Translations under genes and position numbers: made by a program
Origin: a plasmid
Sequence record: NZ_CP096708.1
DNA: 64,000 nt
Reading direction: 5' to 3' (one strand)
In this document: piece after piece, positions 4,063 through 63,958 of the stretch
How the letters are laid out: every line of letters starts with the position of its first letter
How positions within the stretch are numbered: the stretch's first letter is position 1
Notes under the pieces: generated by a model
The model's database searches: none
What the model saw: the letters and a program-made list of their open reading frames with translations, nothing else
What the model was told of the DNA's origin: nothing

Positions 4063-4252
4063 CAGCTGCCATAGATAGATGCATCTATGTAATCAGGAAC
4101 TAGGGCTTTGTAAGAGTGGCCATCATAGATAAAAACGTCTATGGCCGTGGCAAACTTAGCTTCAGTATAGATAAATATGTCTATGCTCGATTTACCTGGA
4201 AACATAGTCAAGTCTATCTATGCGCTTATGCTTTCTAGTGCGGATCCGCAAC
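4063..4252 (+). repeat. Repeat element B, copy 1: four 18-bp inverted-repeat operator-like sites plus a terminal palindrome
   Basis: Sites of the form ATAGAT-N6-RTCTAT lie at 4071-4088, 4125-4142, 4167-4184 and 4204-4221. The block ends with TGCGGATCCGCAAC. It is nearly identical to 45994-46183 and 61501-61700. Confidence 0.8.
4239..4252. repeat. Palindrome family copy (TGCGGATCCGCAAC)
   Basis: At the end of repeat B copy 1. Confidence 0.9.
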
Positions 4253-4442
4253 CTGGAGTCGCAACTCTGCGAGATTGCTCTGTAAAGGCCGTGTAGTGCC
4301 AAATAAAGGCAGTTGCGTTGCTGCGGTCAGCTCGACTTAATCACAGATTAAGTCGGCTTCGCTTGCAACCTGCAACGGTAATCAAGGAGGGAAGATACTT
4401 GAATTTCACCAGTTCGCAACGTAGACACGTTGCTCTGTTTAT
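4253..4442 (+). repeat. Repeat element C, copy 1: possible small RNA unit
   Basis: Contains a 10-bp-stem hairpin CGACTTAATC-ACA-GATTAAGTCG, an AAGGAGGG Shine-Dalgarno-like motif, and a terminal hairpin GCAACGT-AGAC-ACGTTGC followed by a T-rich tract. Near-identical copies lie at 7067-7247 and 61701-61878. A diverged inverted copy lies at 45779-45906. Confidence 0.75.
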
Positions 4443-4520
4443 TATGGTGAAATAGCCTTAAAGCAAAATACATGACCCTAGCATAAGCTAGGGGTTTTGT
4501 TATTTTCCAATCTTAGTATC

Positions 4521-4775
4521 CTATACTTTTCCAAGTACATTGGATGCTATCTTTTCTAGTAAGGCGCTATGTTGATCAGAAATATCTTCGATATACATTT
4601 TATATTCATTAAGATCAATGACATTAGCAAGACCCAAACCAGTCACTAACCCTTTTGCATAATGCATTGTTTCATTCAGTTGACGCTGTTGATTAAATTT
4701 TGAGTCTAATGATAAAGCATCTTCCATGTTTTTTATGGAACTCTCAATTTGATTAATTATGAAATCTTTATACAT
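4521..4775 (-). CDS. Hypothetical protein (84 aa)
   Basis: A minus-strand ORF between repeat blocks with no recognisable motif. Confidence 0.3.
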   Translation of the reverse strand: MYKDFIINQIESSIKNMEDALSLDSKFNQQRQLNETMHYAKGLVTGLGLANVIDLNEYKMYIEDISDQHSALLEKIASNVLGKV

Positions 4776-4880
4776 GTTGCTGGATCCTGCACTTTAATTA
4801 ATATGCTATCAAAACCATATAATTATTTTACCACTAATTTAAATAAAATAACAATTAATTTACTTATAATTTTAAAAATA

Positions 4881-4948
4881 GGTTATAATATTTTCATGGA
4901 ATCGGATAGGCTGATTCCTATTAGAGCCGTGAGGCTTAAGGTGAAGAA
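4881..4948 (+). promoter_or_regulatory. Conserved promoter-leader-RBS module (full form)
   Basis: -10 box TTATAAT at 4883-4889. Hairpin 1 GGAATC-GGATAGGCT-GATTCC at 4898-4918. Hairpin 2 AGCC-GTGA-GGCT at 4925-4936. Shine-Dalgarno TAAGGTG at 4937-4943. ATG at 4949. Confidence 0.7.
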
Positions 4949-5392
4949 ATGAAAAATGATTTAGTTTTAAGTTATACCCTTTCTAATGGTGAAACTCATT
5001 TTTATGGCTATTTTATACATCGCAATGATGGTTCGCTTACATCTGGTTTCAATCAAACACCAGAGGAAGTTATTGAAGGGCTTAAACAACGTTATGGCGA
5101 GCGATTAGTCTCAACATCACTAGATGATGAAATTGAATATTTCAAAAAGGAGTTAGAGTTTTTAATTCCAAAGCAAATTGACGAAGAAGAATATAAAAGT
5201 AAATTCAATATATTACCTCCTGCAAAAATGTATAAGAGTGAGTCGGTAGAAGCATTCATGTGTACAGAGCCGTTAGCTATCAATCTGTATACCCATTTCG
5301 TTAATTTTCCTAAGCATAAAAAGGCTTTCCAGATCGTAGCGTTTGGAAATACGCCAATAACAGACGTTATCAAACAAGCAGAACATTTTTGA
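4949..5392 (+). CDS. Hypothetical protein (147 aa)
   Basis: The ORF sits directly behind a conserved leader module. Confidence 0.55.
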   Translation: MKNDLVLSYTLSNGETHFYGYFIHRNDGSLTSGFNQTPEEVIEGLKQRYGERLVSTSLDDEIEYFKKELEFLIPKQIDEEEYKSKFNILPPAKMYKSESVEAFMCTEPLAINLYTHFVNFPKHKKAFQIVAFGNTPITDVIKQAEHF

Positions 5393-5399
5393 TTTTCAT

Positions 5400-5454
5400 G
5401 GGGTAGAAATACCCCAATTTTAATTAATGAGCTGAAAAGCTTAAGGTGAAATTT
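5400..5454 (+). promoter_or_regulatory. Conserved leader-RBS module (variant)
   Basis: Hairpin GGGGTA-GAAA-TACCCC at 5400-5415. Hairpin 2 AGCT-GAAA-AGCT at 5430-5441. Shine-Dalgarno AAGGTG at 5443-5448. ATG at 5455. Confidence 0.65.
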
Positions 5455-6507
5455 ATGAAAAATATTACTGATTCAATTATTCAAAAACTAGGTCTAATTA
5501 CGTTTGAAGAGTTAGAAAAAGGCGATTTAGAAATATTTACTAACTTTGATACGTGTAAGGTAATTATCAAGGAAATTAAAAAAAATTGGAGTGAAGAAAA
5601 AGTATTTAAAATTTTGTTCGATGCTCTTAACGGCGACTTTATCTATTGTAACTCACAACAAGAATTACAAGCATTTATTAAGTACTTCAAGACTACTAAT
5701 AAACAATCGAATAAAGCTGAGCAACATTTCTTTGTACAGCCAACTAAACCCTACATGGTTGATCCCAAAAAACGCTATTTCATTGCCAATCTAGCAGTTC
5801 CCAATCTTCAAATTGAAAACTTAAAGGATGTTGATAATTTAACGAGTCGAGAAGTGGAATTTATAAATAAAGTTAAAGATGGTTTTGCAAATCCTGACAT
5901 TGACAAGTCTTTCCTAAACTTTTTAGAGGACTATAAAAAAATAGTTGCAGCAGAGTACCAGAGGAAAACAAACCAAAATAAAAAAGCAATGGATGAAATT
6001 GAATGGTTCATTGGCAATGGCTTTTTTATTCCTGAGCAAATTCTCAAGTACGAAGATAAAAACAAAATCCTCGATATCATTGTGTACTGCAATATTGCAG
6101 CTTTGAATTGGTTGTTGATCCCAAGTAACTTGTCTAAATATGAAAATATTCATCAAAACGACTTGTTAGCTTTAACCAAATATTTGTACCTGATGCAAAC
6201 AATATTGGCAGAAACTGAAATCACAAAATTAAGAAGTGGCGATGTAGAGGAATATTGTTTTAGGAAAAAAGGATATTATTTTTTAGATGAATTAAGTAGT
6301 GAAGAGATTGATCATTATTGTGAGGGAGAAGATTATGAAGTCTGGATTGTAAAATCTAAAGATAATGAAATCGAACCTGAAACCGCAGAAAAAGCCTATG
6401 ATGCATATGGAAATAGTTACGCATACGACTTAAAAGAACTAAAGGATACTTTGCAAAAATTTATATCCTTAAATGAAGTGCAGTTTTTACTTTACAAAAA
6501 GATTTAA
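5455..6507 (+). CDS. Hypothetical protein (about 350 aa)
   Basis: A long ORF. Start taken as the ATG at 5455 behind the Shine-Dalgarno; the track uses a GTG at 5446. Confidence 0.55.
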   Translation: MKNITDSIIQKLGLITFEELEKGDLEIFTNFDTCKVIIKEIKKNWSEEKVFKILFDALNGDFIYCNSQQELQAFIKYFKTTNKQSNKAEQHFFVQPTKPYMVDPKKRYFIANLAVPNLQIENLKDVDNLTSREVEFINKVKDGFANPDIDKSFLNFLEDYKKIVAAEYQRKTNQNKKAMDEIEWFIGNGFFIPEQILKYEDKNKILDIIVYCNIAALNWLLIPSNLSKYENIHQNDLLALTKYLYLMQTILAETEITKLRSGDVEEYCFRKKGYYFLDELSSEEIDHYCEGEDYEVWIVKSKDNEIEPETAEKAYDAYGNSYAYDLKELKDTLQKFISLNEVQFLLYKKI

Positions 6508-6568
6508 GACGCATAAAGGTCACATCATTTGATTGGTGTGACCACAATTATTTCAGGGTAGAGCACGA

Positions 6569-6766
6569 ATGAAAAATGAATATTCTGATTCAGAACTAGA
6601 AAAACTGTGGTGTGAATTAAGCAAAATAGCTATTGCGGTAAATGAAAATTTTATTGAACAAGACTTCATATTTTTTGAAGCAGGTACAGACATAATTGAA
6701 ATTTGGATTTGGTTCGATCAGTTACATTCAAAAGGGGTTAAATGGCTGCAAGATAATATTGATTAG
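6569..6766 (+). CDS. Hypothetical small acidic protein (65 aa)
   Basis: A short ORF followed by a palindrome plus T-run terminator. Confidence 0.35.
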   Translation: MKNEYSDSELEKLWCELSKIAIAVNENFIEQDFIFFEAGTDIIEIWIWFDQLHSKGVKWLQDNID

Positions 6767-6804
6767 CAAGATCTAGTTGCGGATCCGCAACTATTTTTTA
6801 AATT

Positions 6805-6828
6805 AATATTTTTTTCTTTATCTTTCTT
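6805..6828 (+). terminator. Intrinsic terminator formed by palindrome copy GTTGCGGATCCGCAAC plus T-run
   Basis: A perfect 16-bp palindrome at 6805-6820 followed by TATTTTTT. Confidence 0.5.
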
Positions 6829-6831
6829 TAT

Positions 6832-7018
6832 GGGCGTTCCCTTCGGGACAGGCTTGTTGGCTTCGCTCGAACTCAAACCTAAAACGTTGGTCACAGTGTT
6901 TAAAATCTAGTTTCATGCATGGCATGAACCTGATTTTAATACACCGCAAAACCAACGTTTTTTACGCTTTGATTTCGCCCCTTCGGGCAACATCCCTAAC
7001 GCTATAATCAAATACCTG
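6832..7018. repeat. Repeat element A, copy 2
   Basis: Near-identical to 3755-3944. Confidence 0.8.
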
Positions 7019-7066: not shown

Positions 7067-7247
7067 GAGTCGCAACTCTGCGAGATTGCTCTGTAAAGGG
7101 CGTGTAGTGCCAAATAAAGGCAGTTGCGTTGCTGCGGTCAGCTCGACTTAATCACAGATTAAGTCGGCTTCGCTTGCAACCTGCAACGGTAATCAAGGAG
7201 GGAAGATACTTGAATTTCATCAGTTCGCAACGTAGACACGTTGCTCT
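7067..7247 (+). repeat. Repeat element C, copy 2
   Basis: Near-identical to 4259-4439. Here it is not preceded by block B. Confidence 0.75.
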
Positions 7248-7356
7248 AGATTTTATGTCAAAAATTCACAAATATAAGTCTCTGTTTTTACTGGTTTTAT
7301 TTATTTATAAAATGCCTATAATATTGTTTTTTATGCTTTTTTTATTTATCTGATGT

Positions 7357-7769: not shown

Positions 7770-8270
7770 ATGATGAAAAACTGGTTCAGTACAGCAGTAA
7801 AAAGTCTTGATGATTTAAAAAAAGAATATCGTAAATTATGCTTTAAGCATCATCCCGATATGGGTGGAACAACTGAAGATATGCAGGCCATAAATTCAGA
7901 ATACGAGCAACTTTTAAAAAAATTAATTAATCAAAAAGCTGATAGTAACTATTCGGATAAATCAACATTTTCAAACCGAGAGGAAGAGATAGAAGCAGAA
8001 ATTAAGCTAAGAGAAGTTTTAGAAAAAATTGAAATTTTAGAGGGCTTAGAAATCGAGAAAATTGGATTATGGTTATATGTTTCTGGCAACACAAAAGCTC
8101 ATAAAGACAAGTTAAAAGAAGCAGGATTAAAATGGAACCATACGAGGAAACTATGGGTATATGTAGGTACAGAAGCAAGAGGACGTGGTACAAAAGATAT
8201 GGATGAGCTAAGAGCAAAATATGGAAATGAAAAATTTAAAACTCGATCAAAAATAAAGAAAATTGCTTAA
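7770..8270 (+). CDS. J-domain (DnaJ-like) protein
   Basis: HPD tripeptide in the context YRKLCFKHHPDMGG, typical of J domains. Confidence 0.65.
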   Translation: MMKNWFSTAVKSLDDLKKEYRKLCFKHHPDMGGTTEDMQAINSEYEQLLKKLINQKADSNYSDKSTFSNREEEIEAEIKLREVLEKIEILEGLEIEKIGLWLYVSGNTKAHKDKLKEAGLKWNHTRKLWVYVGTEARGRGTKDMDELRAKYGNEKFKTRSKIKKIA

Positions 8271-8342
8271 CTATTTTCTACAAAAGAAGTCGTTTTAAAC
8301 GGCTTTTTTTGTATCAAACTGATTGAAAAAAATAGGGAAAAT

Positions 8343-8414
8343 GTTATAATTTAATCAGGAAATCGGATAGGCTGATTTCTTATTTATGAGCTGAAAAGCT
8401 TAAGGAGTTTTAAA
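8343..8414 (+). promoter_or_regulatory. Conserved promoter-leader-RBS module (full form)
   Basis: -10 box TTATAAT at 8344-8350. Hairpin 1 GAAATC-GGATAGGCT-GATTTC at 8359-8379. Hairpin 2 AGCT-GAAA-AGCT at 8389-8400. AAGGAG at 8402-8407. ATG at 8415. Confidence 0.7.
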
Positions 8415-8723
8415 ATGTCACTTGGTACTTCAATGACTGAAATAAAAGCATTATTTCAAAAATTCACTAACTCAACTCTTAATGATGAAGAAAAAATTTA
8501 TCTGAATACCACAGATAAAAAGGTTATCTTTACAGCATCAAAAATCATTACTCTTCAAATTTCAAAAAATCGTATTGCTTATACAGAGTACGATATTTCA
8601 AATAAAGAAAAAATGAGAATTGTTGCAAAAGAGACTTTAAGTTTTAGTACATCACTAAGCTTTTTAGTGAAATTTCATTTTGCCAAAGTACATGCTGAAA
8701 CAATAATCCAAGCAGCACAATAA
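8415..8723 (+). CDS. Hypothetical protein (102 aa)
   Basis: The ORF sits behind a leader module. Confidence 0.5.
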   Translation: MSLGTSMTEIKALFQKFTNSTLNDEEKIYLNTTDKKVIFTASKIITLQISKNRIAYTEYDISNKEKMRIVAKETLSFSTSLSFLVKFHFAKVHAETIIQAAQ

Positions 8724-8734
8724 TAGGAGTAGAT

Positions 8735-8768
8735 AAAAATGGCTAGTAAATACTAGCCATTTTTTTTA
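8735..8768. terminator. Bidirectional intrinsic terminator
   Basis: A 10-bp perfect stem ATGGCTAGTA/TACTAGCCAT flanked by an A-run and a T-run, between convergent genes. Confidence 0.7.
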
Positions 8769-9143
8769 TTGCTTAAATATTTTTACAACTTCACTAATTT
8801 TAGATTTCCAAACTTTCGGGCTAACATCTAACAAGCCATTTTTTTCAAGAATAGAAACTACTGAATCAACAGTTTTTTTACGTGCTTCTTTGATTTCCTC
8901 TTCTAATGCCTGCTCCAATAATTCGATTTCTTTAACCAAACTTTGTTTTTTATTTAGCAGTTTTTGAGCTTTAGGCGAAAGGTAACTATGTTCTATTTTT
9001 TCAGCTTCATCCTGTTTATTGCTGGTCTTATTTTCTTCAATATTAGAAGTAGCATTGTCAGCAGATTGACTTACAGAATTTTGTGAATCCTGTGGATTTG
9101 TAGCAGTGACTGTATTCATATTTTTTCCATCAAGTTGATACAA
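8766..9143 (-). CDS. Hypothetical coiled-coil protein (125 aa)
   Basis: A Lys/Glu-rich, heptad-like ORF. It is the first gene of the leading region and lies on the opposite strand. Confidence 0.4.
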   Translation of the reverse strand: MYQLDGKNMNTVTATNPQDSQNSVSQSADNATSNIEENKTSNKQDEAEKIEHSYLSPKAQKLLNKKQSLVKEIELLEQALEEEIKEARKKTVDSVVSILEKNGLLDVSPKVWKSKISEVVKIFKQ

Positions 9144-12330: not shown

Positions 12331-15300
12331 ATGATAGGTGTCAATAATGTTTCTGAGACAGGACAAGCGTTAAAATATTATCAACTTGATAACTATTATA
12401 CGAATAGTCAGCAGGCTTTAGATCAGACTGAATGGTATGGTCAAGGAGCGCAGATACTTGGTATTGAAGGAGAGCAAGTTGATTCTAAAACGTTTGCAGA
12501 TCTTCTAAATGGAAAGATTGATGATCAGCAGTTAGGCAGAGTTAGAGTCGATGATCAAGGTAATAAATACATAGAGCACAGAGCAGCTATGGATATTACT
12601 TTTAGTGCACCGAAGTCAGTATCTATTCTTGCTGAAGTTTATCAAAATCAGGATGTTTTAGAAGCACATCAAAATGCAGTCAAAGAAACATTATCGACTA
12701 TTGAGGAGAATTTTGTTCAGACAAGATTAAGTGAAGATGGACAAAAACAAAAAGTTGATAGTGATAATTTAATAGTTGCTCTCTTTAATCATAATACTAG
12801 TCGTGCATTGGATCCTCAAACTCATACCCATGCTGTAGTTATGAATGCAACATTTAATGATAAAGATACTTGGTCAAGTATAAGTAATGAAGCAATTTAT
12901 GCAAATCAGTCAGTAATTGGTTCAATTTACAATGCTAACTTGGCTAATAATTTAAAGGAATTAGGTCTAGATCTTGAAGTAAAAGATAACAAAGGTAATT
13001 TTGAAATTGCGGGATTTTCTCCTGAAGTATTAGAAGAATTTTCGCAACGTAGAAAACAAATTATTGATAGCCTCAGTGATCGTGGTATTGATATTGGAGA
13101 CGCACCAGCCAGCTTACGTGAACAGGCAGCACTAAAAACGAGAGATCGAAAGAAAGGGTTTGATGAGCAAGAGCTTAGAGAAAGCTGGAAATCTAGAGCT
13201 AGTGAACTTGGGATTTCTGATAAATTTATTGACGACATTAGATTACAAATTAGAGAAAATAAGTTAATTGCGGATCCGCAACTAGGAAAAGAAACTCAAC
13301 CTGAAGAAGTTCAGGATCCACAGAAAATACCACAGACGAGAGATAATCAACTGGATCAACCTGAAGTAGCTCAAGATCCACAGAAAGTACCACAGACGAG
13401 AGATAATCAACTGGATCAACCTGAAGTAGCTCAAGATCCACAGAAAGTACCACAGATGAGAGATAATCAACTGGATCAGCCTGAAGTAGCTCAAGATCCA
13501 CAGAAAGTACTACAGACGAGAGATAATCAACTGGATCAGCCTAAATCAACCCAAGAACCAGAAAATCAAAAACCTAATAGAGTACGTCCACCTAAAAGAG
13601 ATAAACCACCAATTGTGATTTCCGAAAAAACCAAGGAAGCAGTTTTTTATTCTATTGGGCATCACACAGAACGTGAAATGATGATTAATGAAAATAAGAT
13701 CATAGATACAGCAATGAAAGTTGCTGTAGGTGAAACAGACTTTTTGCAAGTTAAAGCTGAACTGGATAGGTTGAAGAAAGCCAATATTATTATTCAGGTA
13801 GGAAATAGGATAACAACAAAAAAACTAGCTACTGATGAAGTATGGTCACTTGAACACATAAAATCAGAGAAAGGGAGTATGAGTCCAATACTCAATGAGA
13901 AAGCTATTAAGGACAGAATTAACCAGGAAGAAAAACTTAGAGGGAAGCAGTACACAGCAGGACAAAGAGATAGTATTGAGACGATTTTAACTTCTGACAG
14001 TAGATATGTTGCAGTAGATGGATTAGCAGGTACGGGTAAAACTACTCTCTTACATACTATTAATAAAATTGCGAGTGAAAACGGATTTATAGTAAGAGGA
14101 ATGGCAGCTACTGGTGTTGCAGCAAAGAACTTGGAAATGGAGACAGGAATAGAGTCTAAAACAATTGCCATGTTCCAATTTAAAGCTAATGATCTACTTA
14201 AACAGGCAATGGAGCAAGGCGTTGAAAATCGCAAACCTGAAATCTGGATTATAGATGAATCAAGTTTTGTTGGTCAGAATAGCTTTAAGGAAATTTTGAG
14301 CTTATCAAAACAACTAAATACAAGAGTTGTATTTTTAGGCGATAAAAACCAGTTACAAGCAATTAATGCAGGTAAACCTTTTGAATTAGCTCAAAATACA
14401 AATTCTATAGACTTGGCAAAAATGCATAATATTTTGCGTCAAAAGAATCAGGAATTAAAAGATGTTGTAACGTTGGTAGTAGCTAAAAATGATAAAGGAG
14501 AAATTGATCTTAGTAAAAATGCTGAAGCATTTGACTTATTGGATTCGCAAAAAAGAATACATGAATTTGGAAGTGTTCAATCTGGTAAAAATAAAGGGGT
14601 AAAAAGTCAGCTAAATGATAATGAAGATATACATCTTGTTCACAAAGAATTAATTAAAAGCTATATGTCAAATGATGCTAAAGGACGACAAGAAAGTTTA
14701 ATTATTACTCCATTTAACTCGGATCGTGTTGTTTTGAATGCATTGGTAAGAGAGGAAATGAGGAAGGCAAATGAACTTCATGGGCCTGATAGTGAATTTT
14801 CCATTCTTATCAATACAAATTACACAGAACCTCAAAGAAGTTTACAAGCAAACTATGAGCGAGGAATGGTAGTTAGATTTCAAAAAAACTATGCAGATAA
14901 AGATGGTCAAAATAAAATCTTTAAAGGCCAATATTTAAAAGTTTTGATGAAAAATAAAGACGGTACTCTAACATTGGAAGATAAAGACAAGAATCAGTTT
15001 CAATGGAATCCAAAGAAAAAGAGTAATAGTGTAGAAGTGTATAAAGAAGAAAATCGCAAGGTAGCAATTGGAGATACAGTCAGATTTACCAGAACTAAAG
15101 AAGAAGAAGATATAAAAAATGGTGAACGTTATAAGATTAAAGGCTTAACCGAAGATCATGTGAAAATTGAAGATCAAGCGGGAAACGAAAAGCTAATAGA
15201 TAAAGGTGATTTTAAACACTGGGATTATGGTTACAGTAATACAGTATATTCATCACAAGGGTTAACAAAAGGCAATGTATTCTTATTGCTCAACAGTCGA

Positions 15301-17929: not shown

Positions 17930-18512
17930 TAGGATTCCATTGCTTTAGTTTAATATCTGATATTATTGATTCTTCATTTCCAAACAAAAACCAAAATTCA
18001 TCATTAAGATAAATATCTCCATATGAATCGTATTCATCTATTTCAAGGCTTACTGTATACAAATTACTATCTTGGCCTTGATTTGAAATTCTTAAGACAA
18101 CTTGAGCATACGCATTCTTAAGTAGGGTAATATGATCAGGATCATCCCAATGGTTTGTATCACCTACCTCTATATTTAAAACGTCGAAAAGGTTTAGAGC
18201 CAATATTTTACGAGTGATATCTCTCATTTTCTGTACCTTAATTTGTAAATTTACCTTATTACTATCTTGAACTGTTACACAAGAAGCGTTCTCAAATACC
18301 CACATAGATAAATCGGTATTCGGAAAAGCCTGATTAGTTAATTTACGGAAAGCTATATCAAAAACTTCATTCTGTTCTGCGTTTCTTTTGGCCCAAACTT
18401 TAATATTTCCATTGTATAGATTCGGGATCCAAGGTATTGAACTTACTTTAACATCCCACTCTACAAGATCAGTTGAATTAATAATTTTTAAATCATCATC
18501 CTTTAATGTCAT
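17895..18512 (-). CDS. Hypothetical protein (205 aa)
   Basis: Overlaps both the methyltransferase gene and the next gene, which suggests coupled translation. Confidence 0.4.
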   Translation of the reverse strand: MTLKDDDLKIINSTDLVEWDVKVSSIPWIPNLYNGNIKVWAKRNAEQNEVFDIAFRKLTNQAFPNTDLSMWVFENASCVTVQDSNKVNLQIKVQKMRDITRKILALNLFDVLNIEVGDTNHWDDPDHITLLKNAYAQVVLRISNQGQDSNLYTVSLEIDEYDSYGDIYLNDEFWFLFGNEESIISDIKLKQWNPIDLQPYAFHFK

Positions 18513-19218
18513 TTAAGTAATCCTCAGCATTAGAAACAGAAAGTATGGAAGCAAGAATAGCTTGACGTTCAGCGCATGGAAGATCTTTGAAGTTATTTGC
18601 CCACCTTTCAGCTTTACGTTTAATTCTTTGTCGGTCAGTAAAATCTTTACCTGCATAAGTATGATAATGAATGGTATTTGGAAAAAAATTACACCAAACT
18701 GTCTCAGTCCGAACACCACCCCTTGTCATAGCCTGGAAATCTATAGACCACCAGTCCGCAATAAGTTCATCGTAAATTCTATTTCTATAACCAGATAAAA
18801 GAACAAAACAATTTTCAGGCAATTTCTTTAGGAGTTGAATTAGTTTCAGATGGTCTTCATCATTAAATTCATATTTGTAGCGCTTTTTACTTGATCTGGT
18901 TTCGAGTAAGTAAGGTGGATCACAATATAAAACTGTTCGGCCAGATTGGGAAAAATCAAACTCATTTAAGAAATTTAAAGAATCAGTATGATAAAGCTCA
19001 ACATCATTTTCGGGTGAAATAAAAGATTCAATACAATCAATATTTAAATCTATTCCAATTTGTCTAGATGACTTAGCTTTTTTAGATAAAATTGATCCAG
19101 TGCCTAAGAATAGTTCTATGTAGGTATCATGTGGTGGAATTAAGTTAATAATAGCTTGATAAACACCACTTCCTGATTTTGCACCTAAGTAGTTATTTAA
19201 AATAGAATTCATCTTCAT
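18496..19218 (-). CDS. Dam-like (D12 class) N6-adenine DNA methyltransferase
   Basis: NYLGAK, FLGTGS (motif I) and YCDPPY (motif IV), in the same order as in E. coli Dam. Confidence 0.8.
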   Translation of the reverse strand: MKMNSILNNYLGAKSGSGVYQAIINLIPPHDTYIELFLGTGSILSKKAKSSRQIGIDLNIDCIESFISPENDVELYHTDSLNFLNEFDFSQSGRTVLYCDPPYLLETRSSKKRYKYEFNDEDHLKLIQLLKKLPENCFVLLSGYRNRIYDELIADWWSIDFQAMTRGGVRTETVWCNFFPNTIHYHTYAGKDFTDRQRIKRKAERWANNFKDLPCAERQAILASILSVSNAEDYLNDIKG

Positions 19219-19505: not shown

Positions 19506-20063
19506 CTATACTTTATTAACCAGAGAAATGAAGTTTTTTTTGATTGTACAGAGATTAATATCTTTATTAGACGGTTGATAGGATTTAAGATATTCAGGTA
19601 TAAGCAACTGTTGAAAGTCAAAACAAGTAATGGTTCCTTTTCTAAATTCCATAATTTCTTTAACTTTTAGTTTAACCGTTTCATTTCTATCAATAATTTC
19701 TTTTAATGTTAAATAGTCGATTTCTGAAATCTCATTAAATAAAAATGTAGTGGATAAGAAATTTAAGTTTTGTTGATTTAAAAAACGTGAATTTCTTTTA
19801 GATAAATACTTATATAAGATTCTTATACTAAGAATCATTATTGATGAAAAAGATATAGCAACTAAAAAATTAATTCTTAAGTTGAAACTAAAAATCCAAC
19901 AAAGATAAAATCCATAAAAACAGAATAGAAATTGTGACAATATAAATGCATGAATAATGACATTTGTTATAAAGTCAAAATTAGAAAAGGCAGATTGATA
20001 CTGTTCCTTAGAAATAGGTTTGTAATTAGATATTCTGATATCTAACATTTCAATAGTTTGCAT
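19506..20063 (-). CDS. Membrane protein, paralog B of the 21560-22165 ORF
   Basis: Shares an N-terminal region and a C-terminal motif KVKEIMEFRKGTITCFDF with the paralog, which has KVKEILKNRDGIITGFDF. The central part is hydrophobic. Confidence 0.5.
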   Translation of the reverse strand: MQTIEMLDIRISNYKPISKEQYQSAFSNFDFITNVIIHAFILSQFLFCFYGFYLCWIFSFNLRINFLVAISFSSIMILSIRILYKYLSKRNSRFLNQQNLNFLSTTFLFNEISEIDYLTLKEIIDRNETVKLKVKEIMEFRKGTITCFDFQQLLIPEYLKSYQPSNKDINLCTIKKNFISLVNKV

Positions 20064-20092
20064 ATTAACACCTTAAGCTTAGCAGCTCGTAT

Positions 20093-20108
20093 GTTGCGGA
20101 TCCGCAAC
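20093..20108. repeat. Palindrome family copy (GTTGCGGATCCGCAAC)
   Basis: Intergenic, 30 bp upstream of the paralog B start, and followed by an A-run. Confidence 0.9.
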
Positions 20109-22190: not shown

Positions 22191-22194
22191 GTTA

Positions 22195-45778: not shown

Positions 45779-45906
45779 AAGAGCAACGTGTCTACGTTGC
45801 GAACTGATGAAATTCGAGCATACCCATCTTTGATTACCGTTGCAGGTTGCAAGTGAAGCCGGCTTAATCTGTGATTAAGTCGAGCTGACCGCAGCAACGC
45901 AACTGC
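45779..45906 (-). repeat. Repeat element C, partial diverged inverted copy
   Basis: Reverse complement of about 4310-4439 with substitutions. The AAGGAGGG motif is lost. Confidence 0.7.
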
Positions 45907-45993
45907 TTTACTTGATCCTCGATGTAATCAACTAAGTATTCATGCAGATTTACGACATGTACTGTGCTTGCCATAATCTACATTTATCCAATG

Positions 45994-46183
45994 CAGCTGC
46001 CATAGATAGATGCATCTATGTAATCAGGAACTAGGGCTTTGTAAGAGTGGCCATCATAGATAAAAACGTCTATGGCCGTTGCAAACTTAGCTTCAGTATA
46101 GATAAATATGTCTATGCTCGATTTACCTGGAAACATAGTCAAGTCTATCTATGCGCTTATGCTTTCTAGTGCGGATCCGCAAC
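45994..46183 (+). repeat. Repeat element B, copy 3
   Basis: Near-identical to 4063-4252. Confidence 0.8.
46170..46183. repeat. Palindrome family copy (end of repeat B copy 3)
   Basis: TGCGGATCCGCAAC. Confidence 0.9.
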
Positions 46184-50136: not shown

Positions 50137-51222
50137 ATGAATTATAGTCAAGTTTTAAGTAAATACTTCGATATCTCAAAAGAAAACGCTATTGCACAAG
50201 AACACCCCGTGGCAATAATAACGATTGGCGCTGAAAATACAGGTAAAGAAGTTATCACTGCACAAGCACAAAATGAATTAAGTCATCGAGGAGGATCAAT
50301 TCTATTAGATAAAGACCTAATTTCTGTTGCGGATCCGCAACAAACTGAACATGAAAAATATAATACTTTTAAAGACTTATTAGAAAAGGCGAGTAATGAG
50401 AAATTTAATTTAGTTGTAAATCAAGATTTTAAGAGTGAATCTGAGTTTAAAGATATATCTAAAAATTTACAAAGTAAGGGATATGAAATTGAAGTTAGAA
50501 CGATTGCAAGCCCTAATGAAATCAATCAAAAACGTCAAGAGGAACATGAACTTTTAAATTTAAATCTTAAAGGTTTAGAAAAAATAGCAAGTGTTCCTTT
50601 TAAAGAAGATTCTACTGAAAAAATTTTAAGCCAAATAGATAAAGAAGACATTGTTGATAAAGTTAAAATTTATGATCGAGTAGGTAATGAAGTTTACTCA
50701 AATGAGAAAAATCCAGATGGCGAAACATGGGTAAAACAAAAAGAAGCTTATAATGTATATAACTTTGAGACTAATAAACCATTAGCTAAGTCTGAAGCTG
50801 AGTACCTTCTATTAGCTCAACATCAATTAAAAGAATTAAAAGACTCACATACAATGATAAATGAACAATTTAAAGAGATTGATCAAAATAAAGGTATAGA
50901 AATTAAAAAGTTAGAATTAACTTTAGAGAAACCAAAATATATTAGGCAAGCTAAAAATTTCAAAGATGTACAAAGAGGAATAGTGGTTGAAACTTCCCAA
51001 GATAAATTAATTCTAAAACTAAATGATAAAGTTGGCATTGAATACGATATGAAACAATTACAAAAAGAACAGAAAGAATTTACTAACTTGAGACTCGGCC
51101 AAGAATTACATATTAACCATTCAGGAAATACACCAGAGATGATGAATGAACAAGAAATTATGGATTATCACATAACTCAGAATGATCAATCTCATGAAAT
51201 TGGTTTAGATCAGAGCCGTTGA
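50137..51222 (+). CDS. P-loop-like protein with a variant Walker A (GAENTGKE) and a long charged C-terminus
   Basis: IITIGAENTGKEV fits GxxxxGK but has Glu where Ser/Thr is expected. Start taken at MNYSQ behind AAGGA. Confidence 0.4.
   Translation: MNYSQVLSKYFDISKENAIAQEHPVAIITIGAENTGKEVITAQAQNELSHRGGSILLDKDLISVADPQQTEHEKYNTFKDLLEKASNEKFNLVVNQDFKSESEFKDISKNLQSKGYEIEVRTIASPNEINQKRQEEHELLNLNLKGLEKIASVPFKEDSTEKILSQIDKEDIVDKVKIYDRVGNEVYSNEKNPDGETWVKQKEAYNVYNFETNKPLAKSEAEYLLLAQHQLKELKDSHTMINEQFKEIDQNKGIEIKKLELTLEKPKYIRQAKNFKDVQRGIVVETSQDKLILKLNDKVGIEYDMKQLQKEQKEFTNLRLGQELHINHSGNTPEMMNEQEIMDYHITQNDQSHEIGLDQSR
50326..50341. repeat. Palindrome family copy inside the 50137-51222 CDS
   Basis: Encodes VADPQ. 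Confidence 0.9.
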
Positions 51223-53014: not shown

Positions 53015-53389
53015 ATGATTGATCAATCTATATTAGTACCAGTAAAGATATTAAAACAAAATGATATTTATTACTTGAGTAACAAAGAATTAGATATACT
53101 GGAGCAAAGTAGCAACTTGTATATTGCCATTTCAAACTTCAAAAAACTCTTAATTCAAAAGTATGTTGCTTATGCAATTAATGAAATTGAACCTCCTAAA
53201 TTTGATCTTGATAAGAGTCTCAAAAATGGTGGTATCTTAATTGAAGTTTCTGATGAGTGTTTTGATAGTGATGTTGAACGAGTCACGATGACTATTCCGA
53301 AAAATATTATTAAAGGTATTGATGCTATTTCGGAGAATAGAAGTGCAACATTTACTCAACTAGGTAAACAATTAATCGGTAAGCCCTAA
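53015..53389 (+). CDS. Hypothetical protein (124 aa)
   Basis: A palindrome plus T-run lies 9 bp after the stop. Confidence 0.4.
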   Translation: MIDQSILVPVKILKQNDIYYLSNKELDILEQSSNLYIAISNFKKLLIQKYVAYAINEIEPPKFDLDKSLKNGGILIEVSDECFDSDVERVTMTIPKNIIKGIDAISENRSATFTQLGKQLIGKP

Positions 53390-53397
53390 AAACTACT

Positions 53398-53413
53398 GTT
53401 GCGGATCCGCAAC
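53398..53413. repeat. Palindrome family copy (extended 22-bp form ACTGTTGCGGATCCGCAACAGT)
   Basis: Intergenic, flanked by an A-run and a T-run, so it is likely to act as a terminator. Confidence 0.9.
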
Positions 53414-56369: not shown

Positions 56370-56385
56370 GTTGCGGATCCGCAAC
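56370..56385. repeat. Palindrome family copy upstream of the H-NS-like gene
   Basis: Lies 28 bp before the ATG. Confidence 0.9.
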
Positions 56386-56412
56386 ATAAATTAATCCAGA
56401 GAAGAGAAAGCT

Positions 56413-56736
56413 ATGAAAGACATAGAAAACTACACAGTACCTGAACTTGAAAGTTTACGTGTAAGAGCAGGTGAACTTATCGAGCTAAAAAAAGAGCAAG
56501 CTATTGATGATGCGTATGAAAAACTACTCGAAATAGCTGAATCAGTGGGCTATAAGGTTGAAGACTTATTAGCTTATGGTGAACAGAAAAAAAAGAAAAA
56601 AACACGTAAATCTGTAGAACCAAAATATCGTAATAAACTGAATAATGATGAAACTTGGACAGGACGTGGAAAACCACCACGATGGTTAGTTGCACAACTA
56701 GAAAAAGGTGCGAAGCTAAACGATTTCCTTATCTAA
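56413..56736 (+). CDS. H-NS-family nucleoid-associated protein
   Basis: C-terminal TWTGRGKPPRW matches the H-NS DNA-binding motif. A palindrome copy lies 28 bp upstream of the ATG. Confidence 0.7.
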   Translation: MKDIENYTVPELESLRVRAGELIELKKEQAIDDAYEKLLEIAESVGYKVEDLLAYGEQKKKKKTRKSVEPKYRNKLNNDETWTGRGKPPRWLVAQLEKGAKLNDFLI

Positions 56737-59042: not shown

Positions 59043-59132
59043 ATGAAAATTAGATATTTAAAATTGATCGTTCTCTTTTTATTTGTTCAGGCTTTAATTG
59101 CATGCCATCAAATAGCAGGAGGTGTAATTTGA
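59043..59132 (+). CDS. Possible 29-aa leader peptide ORF overlapping the methyltransferase start
   Basis: The ATG follows the module. The ORF contains AGGAGGTG four nt before an in-frame TTG (59129) of the methyltransferase reading frame. Confidence 0.25.
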   Translation: MKIRYLKLIVLFLFVQALIACHQIAGGVI

Positions 59133-60619
59133 CTAGTTTTACAGACTATACACAACCTTTTAATACGCAATATTCACTAAACTTTGATAAGAAAATTATT
59201 ATTGATTTTTTTGCAGGCGGTGGAGGGGCAAGTACTGGTTTAGAATCAGGATTAAATCGCATTGTATATGCTGCTGTTAACCATAACCCTAAATCTATAG
59301 CAATGCATGAAGCCAATCACCCCTATACAAAACATTATATTCAAGATGTTTTCGCTGTTGATCCTATTCAAATATGTAATGGATATTCAGTTGGATGGTT
59401 TCATGCTAGTCCAGACTGCACTCATCATAGCCAAGCAGCAGGTGGTCAACCTAGAAAAAAAGAAATACGTGACTTGAGTTGGGTTGTTTTAAAATTTGCG
59501 GGAAAGGTTAAACCCACTGTCATATCTTTAGAAAATGTTAAGCAGATTCTAGATTGGGGGCCACTAATAGCAAAGAGAGATAAATTAAGTGGCAGGGTAA
59601 TAACACTAGAAAAAATAGAAGTTAATGGAAAAATTATAAATAGAATTGCAGATCCTGGGGAAGTAGTCCCAAGACATAAGCAATTTTTAATTCCTGATCC
59701 AAAAAGAAAGGGTGAAACATGGCTTAGGTTTGTAAGTGAACTTAGGAAACTAGGTTATGTTGTGGATTGGAGAAAAGATATCGTTGCTGCTGACTATGGA
59801 GCTGGAACAATTAGAGAGCGATTATTTATGGTCGCTCGATGCGATAATAAACCTATTCTTTGGCCTGAACGATTATTTTCTAAATTACCTTCTTCTCAAC
59901 AAAACCGATGGATACCGACCGCAGTTTTTATTGATTGGGATGATTTAGGAAAGTCTATCTTTAATCGCTCAAGAGGGCCTTTAGCGGAAGCTACTCTAAA
60001 ACGTATAGCAAAGGGTTTAAAAAAATATGTTCTGGATGCTAAATATCCATACCTCATAAATCCAAAACACTATTCTGAAAAAATTGATGTTAATTCGACA
60101 CACGAATTTCTTAGCAAAGATTCATTCGAAGCTGATTTTTTTGCACCATACATTACCGAATTTGCAAATGCATCTCAGCAGCGTAATTGGTCAATAGATC
60201 AACCTTTATCTACAATATGTGCTCAAGTTAAAGGCGGTCACCACGGTTTAGTAACAGCAAAATTAAGTAAAAATAATTACGAAGGAGCGATGAGAGTTGC
60301 TGCATTCATAATTAATTACTATGGAAATGGGGATGCAAGAGATATACGTGCACCAATGGATACAATAACAACAAAAGATAGACTAGCACTGGTAACAGTT
60401 TGGATTCGCAATGAACCCTTTATGATTGTTGATATTTGCTTAAGGATGTTTAAACCTCGTGAACTTTTCCGTGCACAAGGGTTTCCAGATTCATACATTA
60501 TTAACCCCACATATGAAGGAAAGCCATTATCAATAAAGGATCAGGTACACATGGTGGGTAATTCAGTGTCTCCAATGCCAATGGCTGCAATAGCTAGAAT
60601 TAATAATCCATTTAATTAA
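59102..60619 (+). CDS. DNA (cytosine-5) methyltransferase, orphan
   Basis: Motif I FFAGGGG, a catalytic Cys in SPDCTHHSQ (a variant of the PCQ motif), and ENV motif VI. No restriction endonuclease gene is adjacent. Confidence 0.7.
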   Translation: MPSNSRRCNLTSFTDYTQPFNTQYSLNFDKKIIIDFFAGGGGASTGLESGLNRIVYAAVNHNPKSIAMHEANHPYTKHYIQDVFAVDPIQICNGYSVGWFHASPDCTHHSQAAGGQPRKKEIRDLSWVVLKFAGKVKPTVISLENVKQILDWGPLIAKRDKLSGRVITLEKIEVNGKIINRIADPGEVVPRHKQFLIPDPKRKGETWLRFVSELRKLGYVVDWRKDIVAADYGAGTIRERLFMVARCDNKPILWPERLFSKLPSSQQNRWIPTAVFIDWDDLGKSIFNRSRGPLAEATLKRIAKGLKKYVLDAKYPYLINPKHYSEKIDVNSTHEFLSKDSFEADFFAPYITEFANASQQRNWSIDQPLSTICAQVKGGHHGLVTAKLSKNNYEGAMRVAAFIINYYGNGDARDIRAPMDTITTKDRLALVTVWIRNEPFMIVDICLRMFKPRELFRAQGFPDSYIINPTYEGKPLSIKDQVHMVGNSVSPMPMAAIARINNPFN

Positions 60620-61500: not shown

Positions 61501-61700
61501 CAGCTGCCATAGATAGATGCATCTATGTAATCAGGAACTAGGGCTTTGTAAGAGTGGCCATCATAGATAAAAACGTCTATGGCCGTGGCAAACTTAGCTT
61601 CAGTATAGATAAATATGTCTATGCTCGATTTACCTGGAAACATAGTCAAGTCTATCTATGCGCTTATGCTTTCTAGTGCGGATCCGCAACCTGGAGTCGC
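61501..61700 (+). repeat. Repeat element B, copy 4
   Basis: Identical to 4063-4252. Confidence 0.8.
61687..61700. repeat. Palindrome family copy (end of repeat B copy 4)
   Basis: TGCGGATCCGCAAC. Confidence 0.9.
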
Positions 61701-61878
61701 AACTCTGCGAGATTGCTCTGTAAAGGCCGTGTAGTGCCAAATAAAGGCAGTTGCGTTGCTGCGGTCAGCTCGACTTAATCACAGATTAAGTCGGCTTCGC
61801 TTGCAACCTGCAACGGTAATCAAGGAGGGAAGATACTTGAATTTCATCAGTTCGCAACGTAGACACGTTGCTCTGTTT
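61701..61878 (+). repeat. Repeat element C, copy 4
   Basis: Identical to 4253-4439 apart from one substitution. Confidence 0.75.
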
Positions 61879-61881
61879 TTT
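61854..61881 (+). terminator. Intrinsic terminator at the 3' end of element C
   Basis: GCAACGT-AGAC-ACGTTGC followed by TCTGTTTTTT. Confidence 0.6.
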
Positions 61882-62464
61882 AATCATCGAGTTTAGATAA
61901 AGGTTGAAATGCCTTAAAAGAATATTTTTTAAATACAATATTTGTGTCCTGGTATCGGATCTTTCTCAGGTCATTAATTTTATCTACTATATTTGAATAT
62001 TTTTCATACAGTTCTTTAATATCATTAGAATTGGCTCTATCTGCAAACATATTTTCAGCTTGTTTCTCTAACTTACTAATAGTTTGGTCTAAGCGTTGAA
62101 CTACTTGAATTGCTTCAGGAGCAGCTATTTCAGTTTTATTCAGGGTGAGATCAGATAGGATCTTATTATAATAATTTGATTTTTGCCTATCTTCATATTT
62201 AATGATGTAATCTCTACGATCAAATATGTCACAAGTAGGGTTTAAACGTTTTATTGATCGTTTAGCCTTGACGACATCATCTGCATTCCAGTAGCCCATA
62301 TCCCCATCTTGGGCGACTATAAACATATCTTCATTTAGAAAAACCAATACAACAGTTTTTAAAGTTAAATTTTCTCTTTCATACCGTACAAAGTAGATTT
62401 TACTGGCATCTTTTATATGTGATGAGCTTTCTTTGCTCAGCCTGGTATGGCGATTATTGGTCAT
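61880..62464 (-). CDS. Hypothetical protein (194 aa)
   Basis: A clean minus-strand ORF. Confidence 0.4.
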   Translation of the reverse strand: MTNNRHTRLSKESSSHIKDASKIYFVRYERENLTLKTVVLVFLNEDMFIVAQDGDMGYWNADDVVKAKRSIKRLNPTCDIFDRRDYIIKYEDRQKSNYYNKILSDLTLNKTEIAAPEAIQVVQRLDQTISKLEKQAENMFADRANSNDIKELYEKYSNIVDKINDLRKIRYQDTNIVFKKYSFKAFQPLSKLDD

Positions 62465-62547
62465 AGATATCCCCTCAAGATCTTAAATAAATATACCACT
62501 AATTTAAATAAAATAACAATTAATTTGTTTTTTTTATGTGTTTTTGA

Positions 62548-62614
62548 GTTATAATTAAACAGTGAAATCGGATAGGCTGATTTCTATTAGAGCCGAAAGG
62601 CTTATGGTGATTAT
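62548..62614 (+). promoter_or_regulatory. Conserved promoter-leader-RBS module (full form)
   Basis: -10 box TTATAAT at 62549-62555. Hairpin 1 GAAATC-GGATAGGCT-GATTTC at 62564-62584. Hairpin 2 AGCC-GAAA-GGCT at 62591-62602. TATGGTG. ATG at 62615. Confidence 0.7.
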
Positions 62615-63103
62615 ATGTATAATGTATTGATTATAGAGCAATTAAAACTATGTAAAATGGATAAGCCATCTTTTTGTGCTTGCCAGGTTGGTGAGATCTA
62701 TATTTGTGATCCAGTGATTGAATTTAATAATGGTTTAGAAGTACTTAAAACAAACATGTATGACTGTAAAGATTTTGATATTTACAGCATTGGTACTAAG
62801 GATCAGTTTAAAAAATTTATTTTTACTTTAGAAAAATTAGCGCAGATTCTGCATGGTTGCCCATTGCTAGATGGACTTAAAGCAACAATGAATTTTCAGG
62901 GCGCTTTTATTGTAGATTGTTTCTCATTCTTTCAAGCTAATTTAGATATTTTATTCAAACCTAGAATTCTAAGTGAGTTCACATCTAGTGAAGATGAAAT
63001 ATTAAATTTCCAGTTAATATACTTCAAACTTCTAGAAGTATTTAGAAAAGCTGGAGCAAATGGATTTATTCAATTCAATACCTATAAAACATTAAATAAA
63101 TAA
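62615..63103 (+). CDS. Hypothetical protein (162 aa)
   Basis: The ORF sits behind a full leader module. Confidence 0.45.
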   Translation: MYNVLIIEQLKLCKMDKPSFCACQVGEIYICDPVIEFNNGLEVLKTNMYDCKDFDIYSIGTKDQFKKFIFTLEKLAQILHGCPLLDGLKATMNFQGAFIVDCFSFFQANLDILFKPRILSEFTSSEDEILNFQLIYFKLLEVFRKAGANGFIQFNTYKTLNK

Positions 63104-63112
63104 TCTAAATAG

Positions 63113-63136
63113 AGCTGAAAAGCTTAAGGTGGAAAA
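63113..63136 (+). promoter_or_regulatory. Conserved leader-RBS module (hairpin 2 only)
   Basis: AGCT-GAAA-AGCT at 63113-63124. AAGGTG at 63126-63131. ATG at 63137. Confidence 0.6.
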
Positions 63137-63913
63137 ATGAAAAAATCAGATAAGTCATTATCTTATGATGAGTTGAAAAGTGAATTTATTTCAAAATTGA
63201 AAACAATAGATCAATCAAAACGACTATATGAAGTATTTCAAGATTTTGTATTTTTTTCTGCTGCATCATTGAGAAATTCTGTAGGCCAAATAGATAGCTC
63301 ATTTATGGATTTAGATCTTGAAAATGAGTATCTGAAAAGAATGCACGGATATGAAGATCTTAAAAGCAGACAGGCCTTTTGTGAGCTATTAGGAATGTTG
63401 GTAATGATGCATACAGTAAAACAAGTTCCATTTGATGTGCTAGGGCAAGTTTATATGGAACTTGAGATAGCAAACCAACATTTAGGTCAGTATTATACGC
63501 CTAGTGCAATTTCTGATGTGATGGCAAATATGACTTTACAGGGCTTTCAAGCCACTGTAAGAGACCAGGGTTTTATAACACTTTCAGACCCTGCATGTGG
63601 ATCAGGAGCAACACTCTTAAGTTGTGTGAAGTTATTTGTCGAAAATAATTATAGAGTTGAAAACACCTTGTATATTGAAGCTACAGACATTGACCGTCAT
63701 GCTGCTTTGATGTGTTATGTTCAACTTAGCTTATGGGGAGTTCCCTGTAAAATTCATGTAGGGAATAGCTTAACAATGGAAATGCGTGAATCATGGTGTA
63801 GTTTTATGTATTTCATGAAAGGTTGGAAAATGAAATTAAATAGATTTATGCTTCAGCAACAAAGTAAGTCTGGTGAAAGTTATGTACCAAATTTTATATT
63901 AGTTGAAAGTTGA
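63137..63913 (+). CDS. N6-adenine methyltransferase-like protein lacking the catalytic NPPY/F motif
   Basis: GQYYTP (motif X) and LSDPACGSGATLL (motif I) are present. The ORF stops after IHVGNSL... with no (D/N)PP(Y/F). Confidence 0.5.
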   Translation: MKKSDKSLSYDELKSEFISKLKTIDQSKRLYEVFQDFVFFSAASLRNSVGQIDSSFMDLDLENEYLKRMHGYEDLKSRQAFCELLGMLVMMHTVKQVPFDVLGQVYMELEIANQHLGQYYTPSAISDVMANMTLQGFQATVRDQGFITLSDPACGSGATLLSCVKLFVENNYRVENTLYIEATDIDRHAALMCYVQLSLWGVPCKIHVGNSLTMEMRESWCSFMYFMKGWKMKLNRFMLQQQSKSGESYVPNFILVES

Positions 63914-63932
63914 TTCTTACCAATAGTGGAAA

Positions 63933-63958
63933 AAGTTGTTGCGGATCCGCAACAACTT
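63933..63958. repeat. Palindrome family copy (26-bp perfect palindrome AAGTTGTTGCGGATCCGCAACAACTT)
   Basis: Intergenic, 20 bp after the methyltransferase-like ORF. Confidence 0.9.

Follow-up and report, generated by a model that had tools for sequence, protein, structure and literature searches.

The stretch of DNA analysed here, 64,000 nucleotides of the plasmid sequence record NZ_CP096708.1 and referred to below as the window, carries a family of short palindromes centred on GATC, which recur in intergenic and in coding DNA between positions 4237 and 63958. The subject of this report is this palindrome family and its relation to the parAB operon, which in an identical plasmid lies just beyond the right end of the window. 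From 17715 to 64000 the window is 100% identical to the A. baumannii plasmid p5689_2 (NZ_CP096733.1, 71,479 bp); it also matches the pBJAB07104 family, and the plasmids are of the MOBF/MPF_F conjugative type. Window 1-1680 has no megablast match in p5689_2, and ISAba1, found at window 1681-2861, has its p5689_2 copies elsewhere (8034-9124 and 24078-25168); the sequenced relatives therefore differ by insertion sequence movements.

Copies of the palindrome and their surroundings

An exact search of the window found 12 exact copies of the perfect 16-mer GTTGCGGATCCGCAAC, starting at 6776, 20093, 22195, 23828, 25039, 29791, 33656, 38853, 50326, 53398, 56370 and 63938. Four extra copies carry one or two mismatches in the outer two positions, namely AGTGCGGATCCGCAAC at 4237, 46168 and 61675 and ATTGCGGATCCGCAAC at 13267, and all 16 contain the exact 12-bp palindrome TGCGGATCCGCA, which is present 18 times on the entire plasmid of ~71 kb. 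The initial annotation, made from the sequence of the window, had reported 16 full copies of a perfect 16-mer; the 16 sites are real, but only 12 of them are perfect and the 16 share the 12-bp core. The palindromic arms reach 9-13 bp at several sites, the longest palindrome being the 26 bp at 63933-63958, which had been noted before and was confirmed, as was the half-site TTGCGGATCC at 45261-45270. With one mismatch permitted in the 10-bp core, no decayed copy was found in the window, this half-site at 45261 being the lone exception. In 100 dinucleotide-preserving shuffles the 16-mer gave 0 matches, and a mean of 0.03 when up to three mismatches were allowed, so that the family is beyond chance expectation, as had been claimed. 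By the k-mer method, the motif with the TGCGGATCCGCA core is the only enriched palindrome of the window plasmid. The sites are listed below, together with their counterparts in two relatives that are described in the next section, the RepAci6-like plasmid p5839 and a contig from a metagenome-assembled genome (MAG); ORF denotes an open reading frame.

4237-4252: AGTGCGGATCCGCAAC; intergenic, where repeat block B meets block C; first of three copies
6776-6791: perfect 16-mer, a 20-bp palindrome with its flanks; ORF 6569-6766 stops 10 bp before it and a T6 run comes after it; has terminator shape
13267-13282: ATTGCGGATCCGCAAC; reads ADPQ within the gene of the MobF relaxase, with a tandem repeat (60 bp x4) following after 14 bp; p5839 orthologue at 22883
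20093-20108: perfect 16-mer; separates two minus-strand genes and precedes the start codon at 20063 by 29 nt
22195-22210: perfect 16-mer; part of the leader of the gene that heads a minus-strand operon, divergent from a resolvase gene, 29 nt upstream of the likely true start; kept in the MAG relative
23828-23843: perfect 16-mer, a 20-bp palindrome; between two minus-strand genes; kept in the MAG relative; a p5839 copy at 29036, beside a resolvase gene, has a comparable place, its orthology being unconfirmed by alignment
25039-25054: perfect 16-mer; in a small signal-peptide ORF (CCGSAT); kept in p5839 (30766) and in the MAG relative
29791-29806: perfect 16-mer; in traV (ADPQ); p5839 orthologue at 35822, the flanking codons being unconserved
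33656-33671: perfect 16-mer; in the signal peptide of traW (CCGSAT); lineage-specific, p5839 having no trace of it
38853-38868: perfect 16-mer; in traF (ADPQ); lineage-specific, with a p5839 site ~0.9 kb off at 45138
45261-45270: half-site TTGCGGATCC; right arm lost
46168-46183: AGTGCGGATCCGCAAC; closes the second copy of repeat block B and precedes a Y-family DNA polymerase gene by 87 nt; orthologues in p5839 (51385) and in the MAG relative
50326-50341: perfect 16-mer; in a zeta-toxin family gene (ADPQ); kept in p5839 (58840) and in the MAG relative
53398-53413: perfect 16-mer, a 22-bp palindrome; 9 bp past the stop of ORF 53015-53389; T6 and A-run flanks give the shape of a bidirectional terminator; p5839 orthologue at 61876
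56370-56385: perfect 16-mer; 27 nt upstream of the start of an H-NS family gene; p5839 orthologue at 64295, 30 nt upstream of the p5839 hns gene
61675-61690: AGTGCGGATCCGCAAC; where block B meets block C; third of the three copies
63933-63958: longest copy, a 26-bp perfect palindrome; between the N6_Mtase gene and parA

Non-coding DNA, which makes up 13.8% of the plasmid, holds 11 of the 18 sites (enrichment P=4e-6). The other seven, six of them in the window, lie inside ORFs and always in segments of low constraint; the earlier readings of the motif as ADPQ in mobF (then called traI), traV, traF and the zeta-toxin ORF, and as CCGSAT in two signal peptides, were right. The three copies of the AGTGCGG type (AGTGCGGATCCGCAAC) terminate a 190-bp repeat that is 99.5% identical between its copies and are therefore not mutually independent. 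The initial annotation had already placed these three at the 3' end of block B.

The sites are spaced more evenly than random, with a coefficient of variation (CV) of 0.48 (P=0.0008) in the p5689_2 family and 0.43 (P=0.0014) in the p5839 family. On average there is about one site per 4 kb, and the gaps reach a maximum of 8-9 kb. Such evenness is not found for the KorB operator (OB) sites of an IncP-1 control plasmid (CV 0.82) or for the dispersed palindrome of the A. lwoffii plasmid pALWED2.2 (CV 0.79), both of which are introduced below.

When folded, the 16-mer gives a stem of 6 bp capped by the tetraloop GAUC (-6.9 kcal/mol); in extended copies the energy falls to as low as -12.9 kcal/mol. 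In the window only 6776 and 53398 have the shape of a terminator, with a T-run behind the hairpin, and outside it the copy after parB has this shape too. The remaining 14 window sites, which lack a T-run or are placed within ORFs, do not have the form of an intrinsic terminator. Of the three terminators proposed earlier, those at 53398 and at the first site stand, the latter with its coordinate of 6805 corrected to 6776-6791, and the one at 23828 does not.

The earlier observation that some sites lie about 30 bp upstream of start codons also holds, the distance being 29 nt at 20093 and 22195 and 27 nt at 56370. Counting both plasmid families, five palindromes end 27-30 nt before a start codon (window 20063-20108, 22165-22210 and 56370-56413, p5689_2 6494-6540 and p5839 64292-64338), and among these five leaders two are paralogous and two are orthologous (hns). 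This position could reflect a roadblock or leader function, or could be just a tolerated place.

Conservation of the sites and the parAB operon

The ParB of the RepAci6-like plasmid p5839 is 60-63% identical, and its DNA is 66-72% identical where alignable. This plasmid carries the same core 13 times, again as its sole enriched palindrome, and at least eight of the 16 window sites have an orthologous partner in it: those in mobF, the small signal-peptide ORF, traV and the zeta-toxin gene, those upstream of the Y-family polymerase gene, hns and parA, and that at the gene end at 53398. In codon alignments, the in-gene sites (mobF, traV, the zeta gene and the small ORF) stand out as 100% identical islands in unconserved protein linkers. 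Because these islands are identical while the surrounding amino acids are not conserved, purifying selection acts on the DNA and not on the peptide. The MAG relative, CAZNMO010000021.1, which is 73-76% identical, has kept five of the five sites that fall in alignable stretches. This 34.8-kb contig is labelled 'uncultured Clostridiaceae' and is collinear with the Acinetobacter plasmid family, and its assignment to that bin is almost certainly wrong. The traW and traF sites have no trace at their p5839 counterparts, and the presence of a different p5839 site 0.9 kb from the traF position suggests a turnover of sites. A further plasmid record, NZ_CP032741.1 (ParB 50% identical), proved to be a frameshift-ridden assembly of a RepAci6 plasmid and was not used.

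As seen in the half-site logo, t-G-T-T-G-C-G-G-A, the inner six positions are invariant across 62 half-sites, and the central 12 bp, with the loop and the inner stem, are invariant over 31 copies from the two diverged plasmid families. The changes in the outer positions are asymmetric and uncompensated, with zero compensatory changes. The invariant inner positions together with these uncompensated outer changes indicate a site for a dimeric protein rather than a mere hairpin.

No ParB/KorB gene had been recognized inside the window; the ParB gene sits just beyond its right end, as found in p5689_2, where parA starts 89 bp and parB ~0.87 kb past window position 64000. The operon of p5689_2 consists of parA (257 amino acids, Walker-type), parB (419 amino acids; 859-2118) and a conserved 411-aa ORF. 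Of the two p5689_2 sites outside the window, one follows the parB stop at a distance of 36 bp and the other, at 6497, separates two small genes. The putative promoter of parA, TTGCTT-N18-TATAAT, is cut by the window end, and the 26-bp palindrome has its centre ~88 bp upstream of the transcription start implied by this promoter; the same -88 geometry of the parA-proximal site, a palindrome of 24-26 bp, is found in the p5689_2 and p5839 families. Overall, four lineages have a palindrome of 24-26 bp upstream of parA, and in three lineages the parB stop is followed by a copy at ~36 bp. Metagenomic lineages with ParB proteins of 76%, 71% and 68% identity have the palindrome upstream of parA and/or ~35 bp after parB, the parA-proximal position being identical in p5839 and in the 76% and 68% lineages. 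In every lineage the N6_Mtase gene is directly upstream of the parA-proximal palindrome.

The ParB of p5689_2 contains the Pfam domains ParB_N (1e-09) and KorB (1.3e-09), and its best sequence matches in the PDB are C. crescentus ParB and RK2 KorB, with 25-28% identity to KorB. In the AlphaFold2 model, residues 30-235 are confident and residues 236-321 form a disordered linker. Among known folds the model ranks RK2 KorB (8qa9/8qa8) best, with ParB and Noc next in order; for the DNA-binding domain the match is to 1r71, the complex of KorB with its operator. This domain is, by eye, ~85% identical between the p5689_2 and p5839 families, compared with 60-63% overall. The recognition helix KSKsWVSRRLQLL is near-identical in both families, with one Ser/Thr difference, and differs in pALWED2.2 and IncP-1. 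In the CTP-pocket, ENxxR is kept, and R91 and N121 align with R117 and N146 of KorB, of which R117 is required for CTP binding and N146 for hydrolysis (PMC11790492).

Within the DNA compared, the motif is plasmid-specific. The core motif has 0 copies in 205.7 kb of A. baumannii chromosome, where ~50 would be expected at plasmid density; this sample is small, consisting of 10 x 20.6 kb around ISAba1 copies, and some of its stretches overlap. Among the matches listed for the 16-mer in 185,579 species genomes (at least 120 stretches) there is no Acinetobacter, a result that is only weakly informative on chromosomes. The listed matches are nearly all singletons in unrelated, mostly high-GC genomes, as by chance, the exception being CAZNMO010000021.1. 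An 18-mer scan of viral contigs gave four unrelated singletons. In the literature searched, neither the motif nor a ParB site of RepAci6-type plasmids is described, and matches to the 12-mer are BamHI primer tails.

Two plasmids with more distant ParB proteins were compared. The permafrost A. lwoffii plasmid pALWED2.2 (NZ_CP032117.2) carries korA-parA-parB, with a ParB of 419 aa that is 34% identical, and has none of the motif with the TGCGGATCCGCA core. Instead, a different palindrome of 14-16 bp, TTTCGTTAACGAAA, is dispersed over it in six copies (2429, 10047, 29333, 35006, 38199 and 40456), one of which starts 2 bp after the parB stop; this palindrome is presumably the operator of the pALWED2.2 KorB homologue. 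As a positive control, the same k-mer method applied to an IncP-1 plasmid finds the known KorB operator TTTAGCNGCTAAA ten times, with one copy 68 bp after korB. Thus, the same site occurs with ParBs that are 60-100% identical, and different palindromes occur at 34% (pALWED2.2) and ~27% (IncP-1) identity, in a comparison of ParB subtype and motif that is a small sample and is confounded with the backbone.

Proposed binder of the sites and rival explanations

From the evidence assembled above we infer that the palindromes are probably the cognate binding or loading sites, similar to parS or OB, of the KorB-type ParB encoded by the plasmid itself. The initial annotation had compared them to dispersed operator or centromere-like sites of a ParB/KorB-type protein, and this proposal is favoured by the adjacent parAB operon, the KorB fold of its ParB and the orthologous positions of the sites. 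A ParB dimer would recognize each (T)GTTGCGGATCCGCAAC(A) via its KorB-type helix-turn-helix domain, and the ParB complexes, together with the 257-aa Walker-type ParA, would partition the low-copy plasmid. Loading would take place across the whole plasmid (18 sites in 71 kb) and not at a single centromere. KorB of RK2 represses from OB sites located 45 to >1000 bp upstream of promoters (PMC11790492), and by this analogy the ParB probably also damps neighbouring transcription from promoter-distal positions. The units affected would be parAB with the gene that follows parB, and also hns, the gene of the Y-family polymerase and, at 22.2 kb, the minus-strand operon. Two or three of the gene-end copies with T-runs may double as intrinsic terminators.

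Several observations weigh against this assignment. The link between motif and ParB is inseparable from the backbone, since nearly all plasmids with this ParB share the tra backbone. None of the sites overlaps a consensus promoter, and around 22195, 46168 and 56370 the promoter scans gave nothing exceeding shuffles, so that a regulatory role can be argued by analogy only. At the level of annotation, at which many small ORFs are uncharacterized, no KorA/TrfB-like or TrbA-like partner is found in p5689_2 or p5839. In ParB itself, the arginine patch GERRxRA (GxxRxxA) reads GHYRYLA (residues 88-95, GHYRYLAH), with two of the three Arg replaced. Eight family members, with identities down to 46%, carry this variant without any change, and it is therefore a fixed family trait and not decay; because it replaces GERRxRA, clamp-type sliding cannot be assumed, and the nucleotide preference and clamp behaviour of this protein may differ from those of KorB and ParB. 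The C-terminal domain is predicted to be helical, unlike that of KorB, which is SH3-like.

The closest known system is KorB/OB of RK2 and R751. Common to both are a protein that combines ParB_N with a KorB-type DNA-binding domain and whose gene follows that of a short ParA, conserved equivalents of KorB R117 and N146, and 10-18 copies of one short palindrome over a conjugative plasmid of 45-70 kb. These copies are found between genes as well as in tra genes, and one of them directly follows korB/parB. However, the site here is an even palindrome of 16-18 bp with a GATC centre, whereas OB has a 13-bp core, TTTAGCSGCTAAA, and the plasmids here are from Acinetobacter and combine an F-type type IV secretion system (T4SS) with a MOBF relaxase, korA and trbA being unannotated. 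The sites here are also even (CV 0.43-0.48, P ~0.001), in contrast to OB (CV 0.82), no promoter-overlapping (class I) site was found among them, and the GHYRYLA patch and the predicted helical C-terminal domain set the protein apart. Chromosomal ParB (Spo0J) and its parS site TGTTNCACGTGAAACA resemble the present system in the 16-bp perfect palindrome with outer TGTT...AACA, in the ParB_N fold with a helix-turn-helix and in the short ParA. The inner 10 bp are unrelated (here GCGGATCCGC), the half-site is one base longer here and the consensus TGTTNCACGTGAAACA is not matched. Chromosomal parS sites cluster near oriC, whereas the sites here cover the whole replicon evenly, many of them inside genes. 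Noc and its NBS sites in Bacillus likewise combine a ParB-family protein, which is among the top fold and sequence matches, with many palindromic sites over a whole replicon, but Noc is a chromosomal factor of nucleoid occlusion that has a membrane-targeting helix and lacks a ParA partner, and here the protein belongs to a plasmid parAB operon. The plasmid pALWED2.2 shares the Acinetobacter host, the 419-aa ParB/KorB homologue and a dispersed palindrome with a copy directly after parB; it differs in having another palindrome, in six uneven copies, a P-type T4SS and a TrfB/KorA-like gene. The system is thus of a known kind, that of KorB/ParB dispersed sites, and is unusual in its even plasmid-wide spacing, the lack of a recognizable KorA partner and the variant nucleotide-pocket motif. 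Xer/dif sites, a resolvase res site, an oriT and a DNA-uptake sequence were also considered and were rejected as unfit for 18 dispersed identical copies, many of them in genes.

The even spacing can be read further, as a selected plasmid-wide array of ParB loading sites, about one per 4 kb, which would coat or silence the whole plasmid. This reading is built on the CV of 0.43-0.48 in two families, on a turnover that preserves spacing and on the appearance of new sites in tolerant linkers and signal peptides; we regard it as doubtful. Were it so, a ParB with GHYRYLA might slide poorly and need many loading points, or a ParB 'chromatin' might lower the fitness cost or protect the DNA after transfer.

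Among the explanations in which ParB is not the binder, the palindrome could be the operator of a different dimeric DNA-binding protein of the plasmid, such as a small KorA-like repressor, the 411-aa protein after parB or another uncharacterized ORF, with ParB using another centromere. Dispersed palindromes do serve several global repressors in IncP-1 plasmids, the site OA of KorA (GTTTAGCTAAAC) likewise starts with GTT and ends with AAC, and most ORFs of the plasmid are hypothetical, the linkage of motif and ParB being that of the whole backbone. Yet no second enriched palindrome is available to serve as parS, the longest copies flank parAB in five lineages, a KorA/TrfB-like gene is unannotated in both families while it is annotated in pALWED2.2, and eighteen copies, many of them intragenic, suit the KorB/ParB pattern better than a simple repressor. 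Such a repressor is judged unlikely. A primarily structural function, in which a hairpin in RNA or in the transferred strand would act as a terminator, as an mRNA stabilizer or in priming or fold-back during conjugative entry, would fit the stem and T-run at the gene ends of 6776 and 53398 and of the copy after parB, as well as the 6-bp stem with its GAUC tetraloop and the orientation independence of a palindrome. We hold it to be quite improbable: a T-run accompanies only two of the 16 sites in the window, termination would be harmful at the seven copies, of 18, that lie in ORFs, and the loop and inner stem show no compensatory change, in contrast to the 10-12 compensatory pairs of the neighbouring block C.

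Methylation or restriction at GATC/GGATCC, in the form of Dam-type switches or of BamHI-like protection or decoys, has been considered because the GGATCC centre is invariant and because the plasmid carries three orphan methyltransferase genes, D12-class N6-adenine (18496-19218, minus strand), C5-cytosine (59102-60619, plus strand) and N6_Mtase (63137-63913, plus strand), the last lying beside the parA-proximal site in all lineages. Only this N6_Mtase gene is common to RepAci6-type plasmids (51% identical). The initial annotation had linked the sites to the D12-class gene as Dam-like, but its product scores 40.3 bits against a cut-off of 114.85 for the Dam subfamily and has no homologue in p5839; the link therefore fails as a conserved feature, since p5839, which also lacks the cytosine methylase, keeps its 13 sites. 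A recognition sequence of 4-6 bp would moreover leave 12-16 invariant bp unexplained, and this explanation is very improbable as the function of the sites; methylation could nevertheless modulate ParB binding. The alternative that had been offered with the initial annotation, a selfish palindrome of the REP or MITE type (names of proliferating repeats) that has spread in the plasmid or in the host genome, would account for many dispersed copies of a short palindrome with intergenic enrichment. Against it stand the 0 copies in the 205.7 kb of chromosome, the lack of Acinetobacter among the species-genome matches listed, the orthologous positions kept over ~30% DNA divergence, in genes as elsewhere, and the 7/18 intragenic copies. 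There are also no decayed copies, flanking duplications or variable loops, and no RAYT-type gene is annotated, so that this alternative can be set aside as extremely improbable.

Neighbouring repeats and meaning for the plasmid family

Several repeats adjoin the palindromes. Block A (3749-3941 and 6825-7017) and block B (4062-4252, 45993-46183 and 61501-61690), the latter always ending in AGTGCGGATCCGCAAC, are intergenic and 95-99.5% identical within one plasmid, which suggests gene conversion or recent duplication. In the MobF relaxase gene, 14 bp after the palindrome, a 60-bp tandem repeat (13296-13542; 4.1 copies, 95% matches) encodes a 20-aa repeated linker.

Block C is a noncoding repeat of ~190 bp found in the window at 4256-4446, 7067-7257 and 61694-61880, with an inverted partial copy at 45780-45914, and in p5839 at L123:10298-10478, L123:16077-16257, L124:31155-31335 and L124:33540-33720. 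It folds far better than its shuffles (z -5.6, -5.0). Its hairpin of ~65 nt, with the conserved loop ATCACAGAT, shows 10-12 compensatory double changes between the plasmid families, and is followed by the invariant GGTAATCAAGGAGG, a perfect Shine-Dalgarno sequence, by a short conserved ORF (..NF[TI]SSQR[RG]HVAL..) and by a second invariant hairpin. Block C is a conserved structured element, and could be a single-strand promoter of the leading region, similar to Frpo/ssi, or a translational leader. A search of the whole window against Rfam found no family, block C included. Clusters of the pentamers GTTGC/GCAAC beside three of the palindromes were considered as arrays of ParB half-sites and rejected, being stem sequences that covary in the sister plasmid.

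The ParB described here occurs, with its backbone, on ~240 Acinetobacter plasmids in PLSDB. Among these are the RepAci6 plasmids, by which OXA-23 and aphA6 are spread in the global A. baumannii clones. To our knowledge, the maintenance and regulation of these plasmids are almost unstudied. The palindromes most likely belong to a KorB-like partition and silencing system, which is of a known kind and, in the literature searched, undescribed for this clinically important plasmid family. A defined ParB site of 16-18 bp would provide a handle for incompatibility-based curing and for plasmid tagging, would predict which plasmids compete for the same partition system and would allow KorB-style long-range silencing to be tested outside IncP-1. 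The even spacing and the in-gene sites also indicate that a requirement for DNA binding can shape coding sequence, ADPQ or CCGSAT having been inserted in six different proteins.

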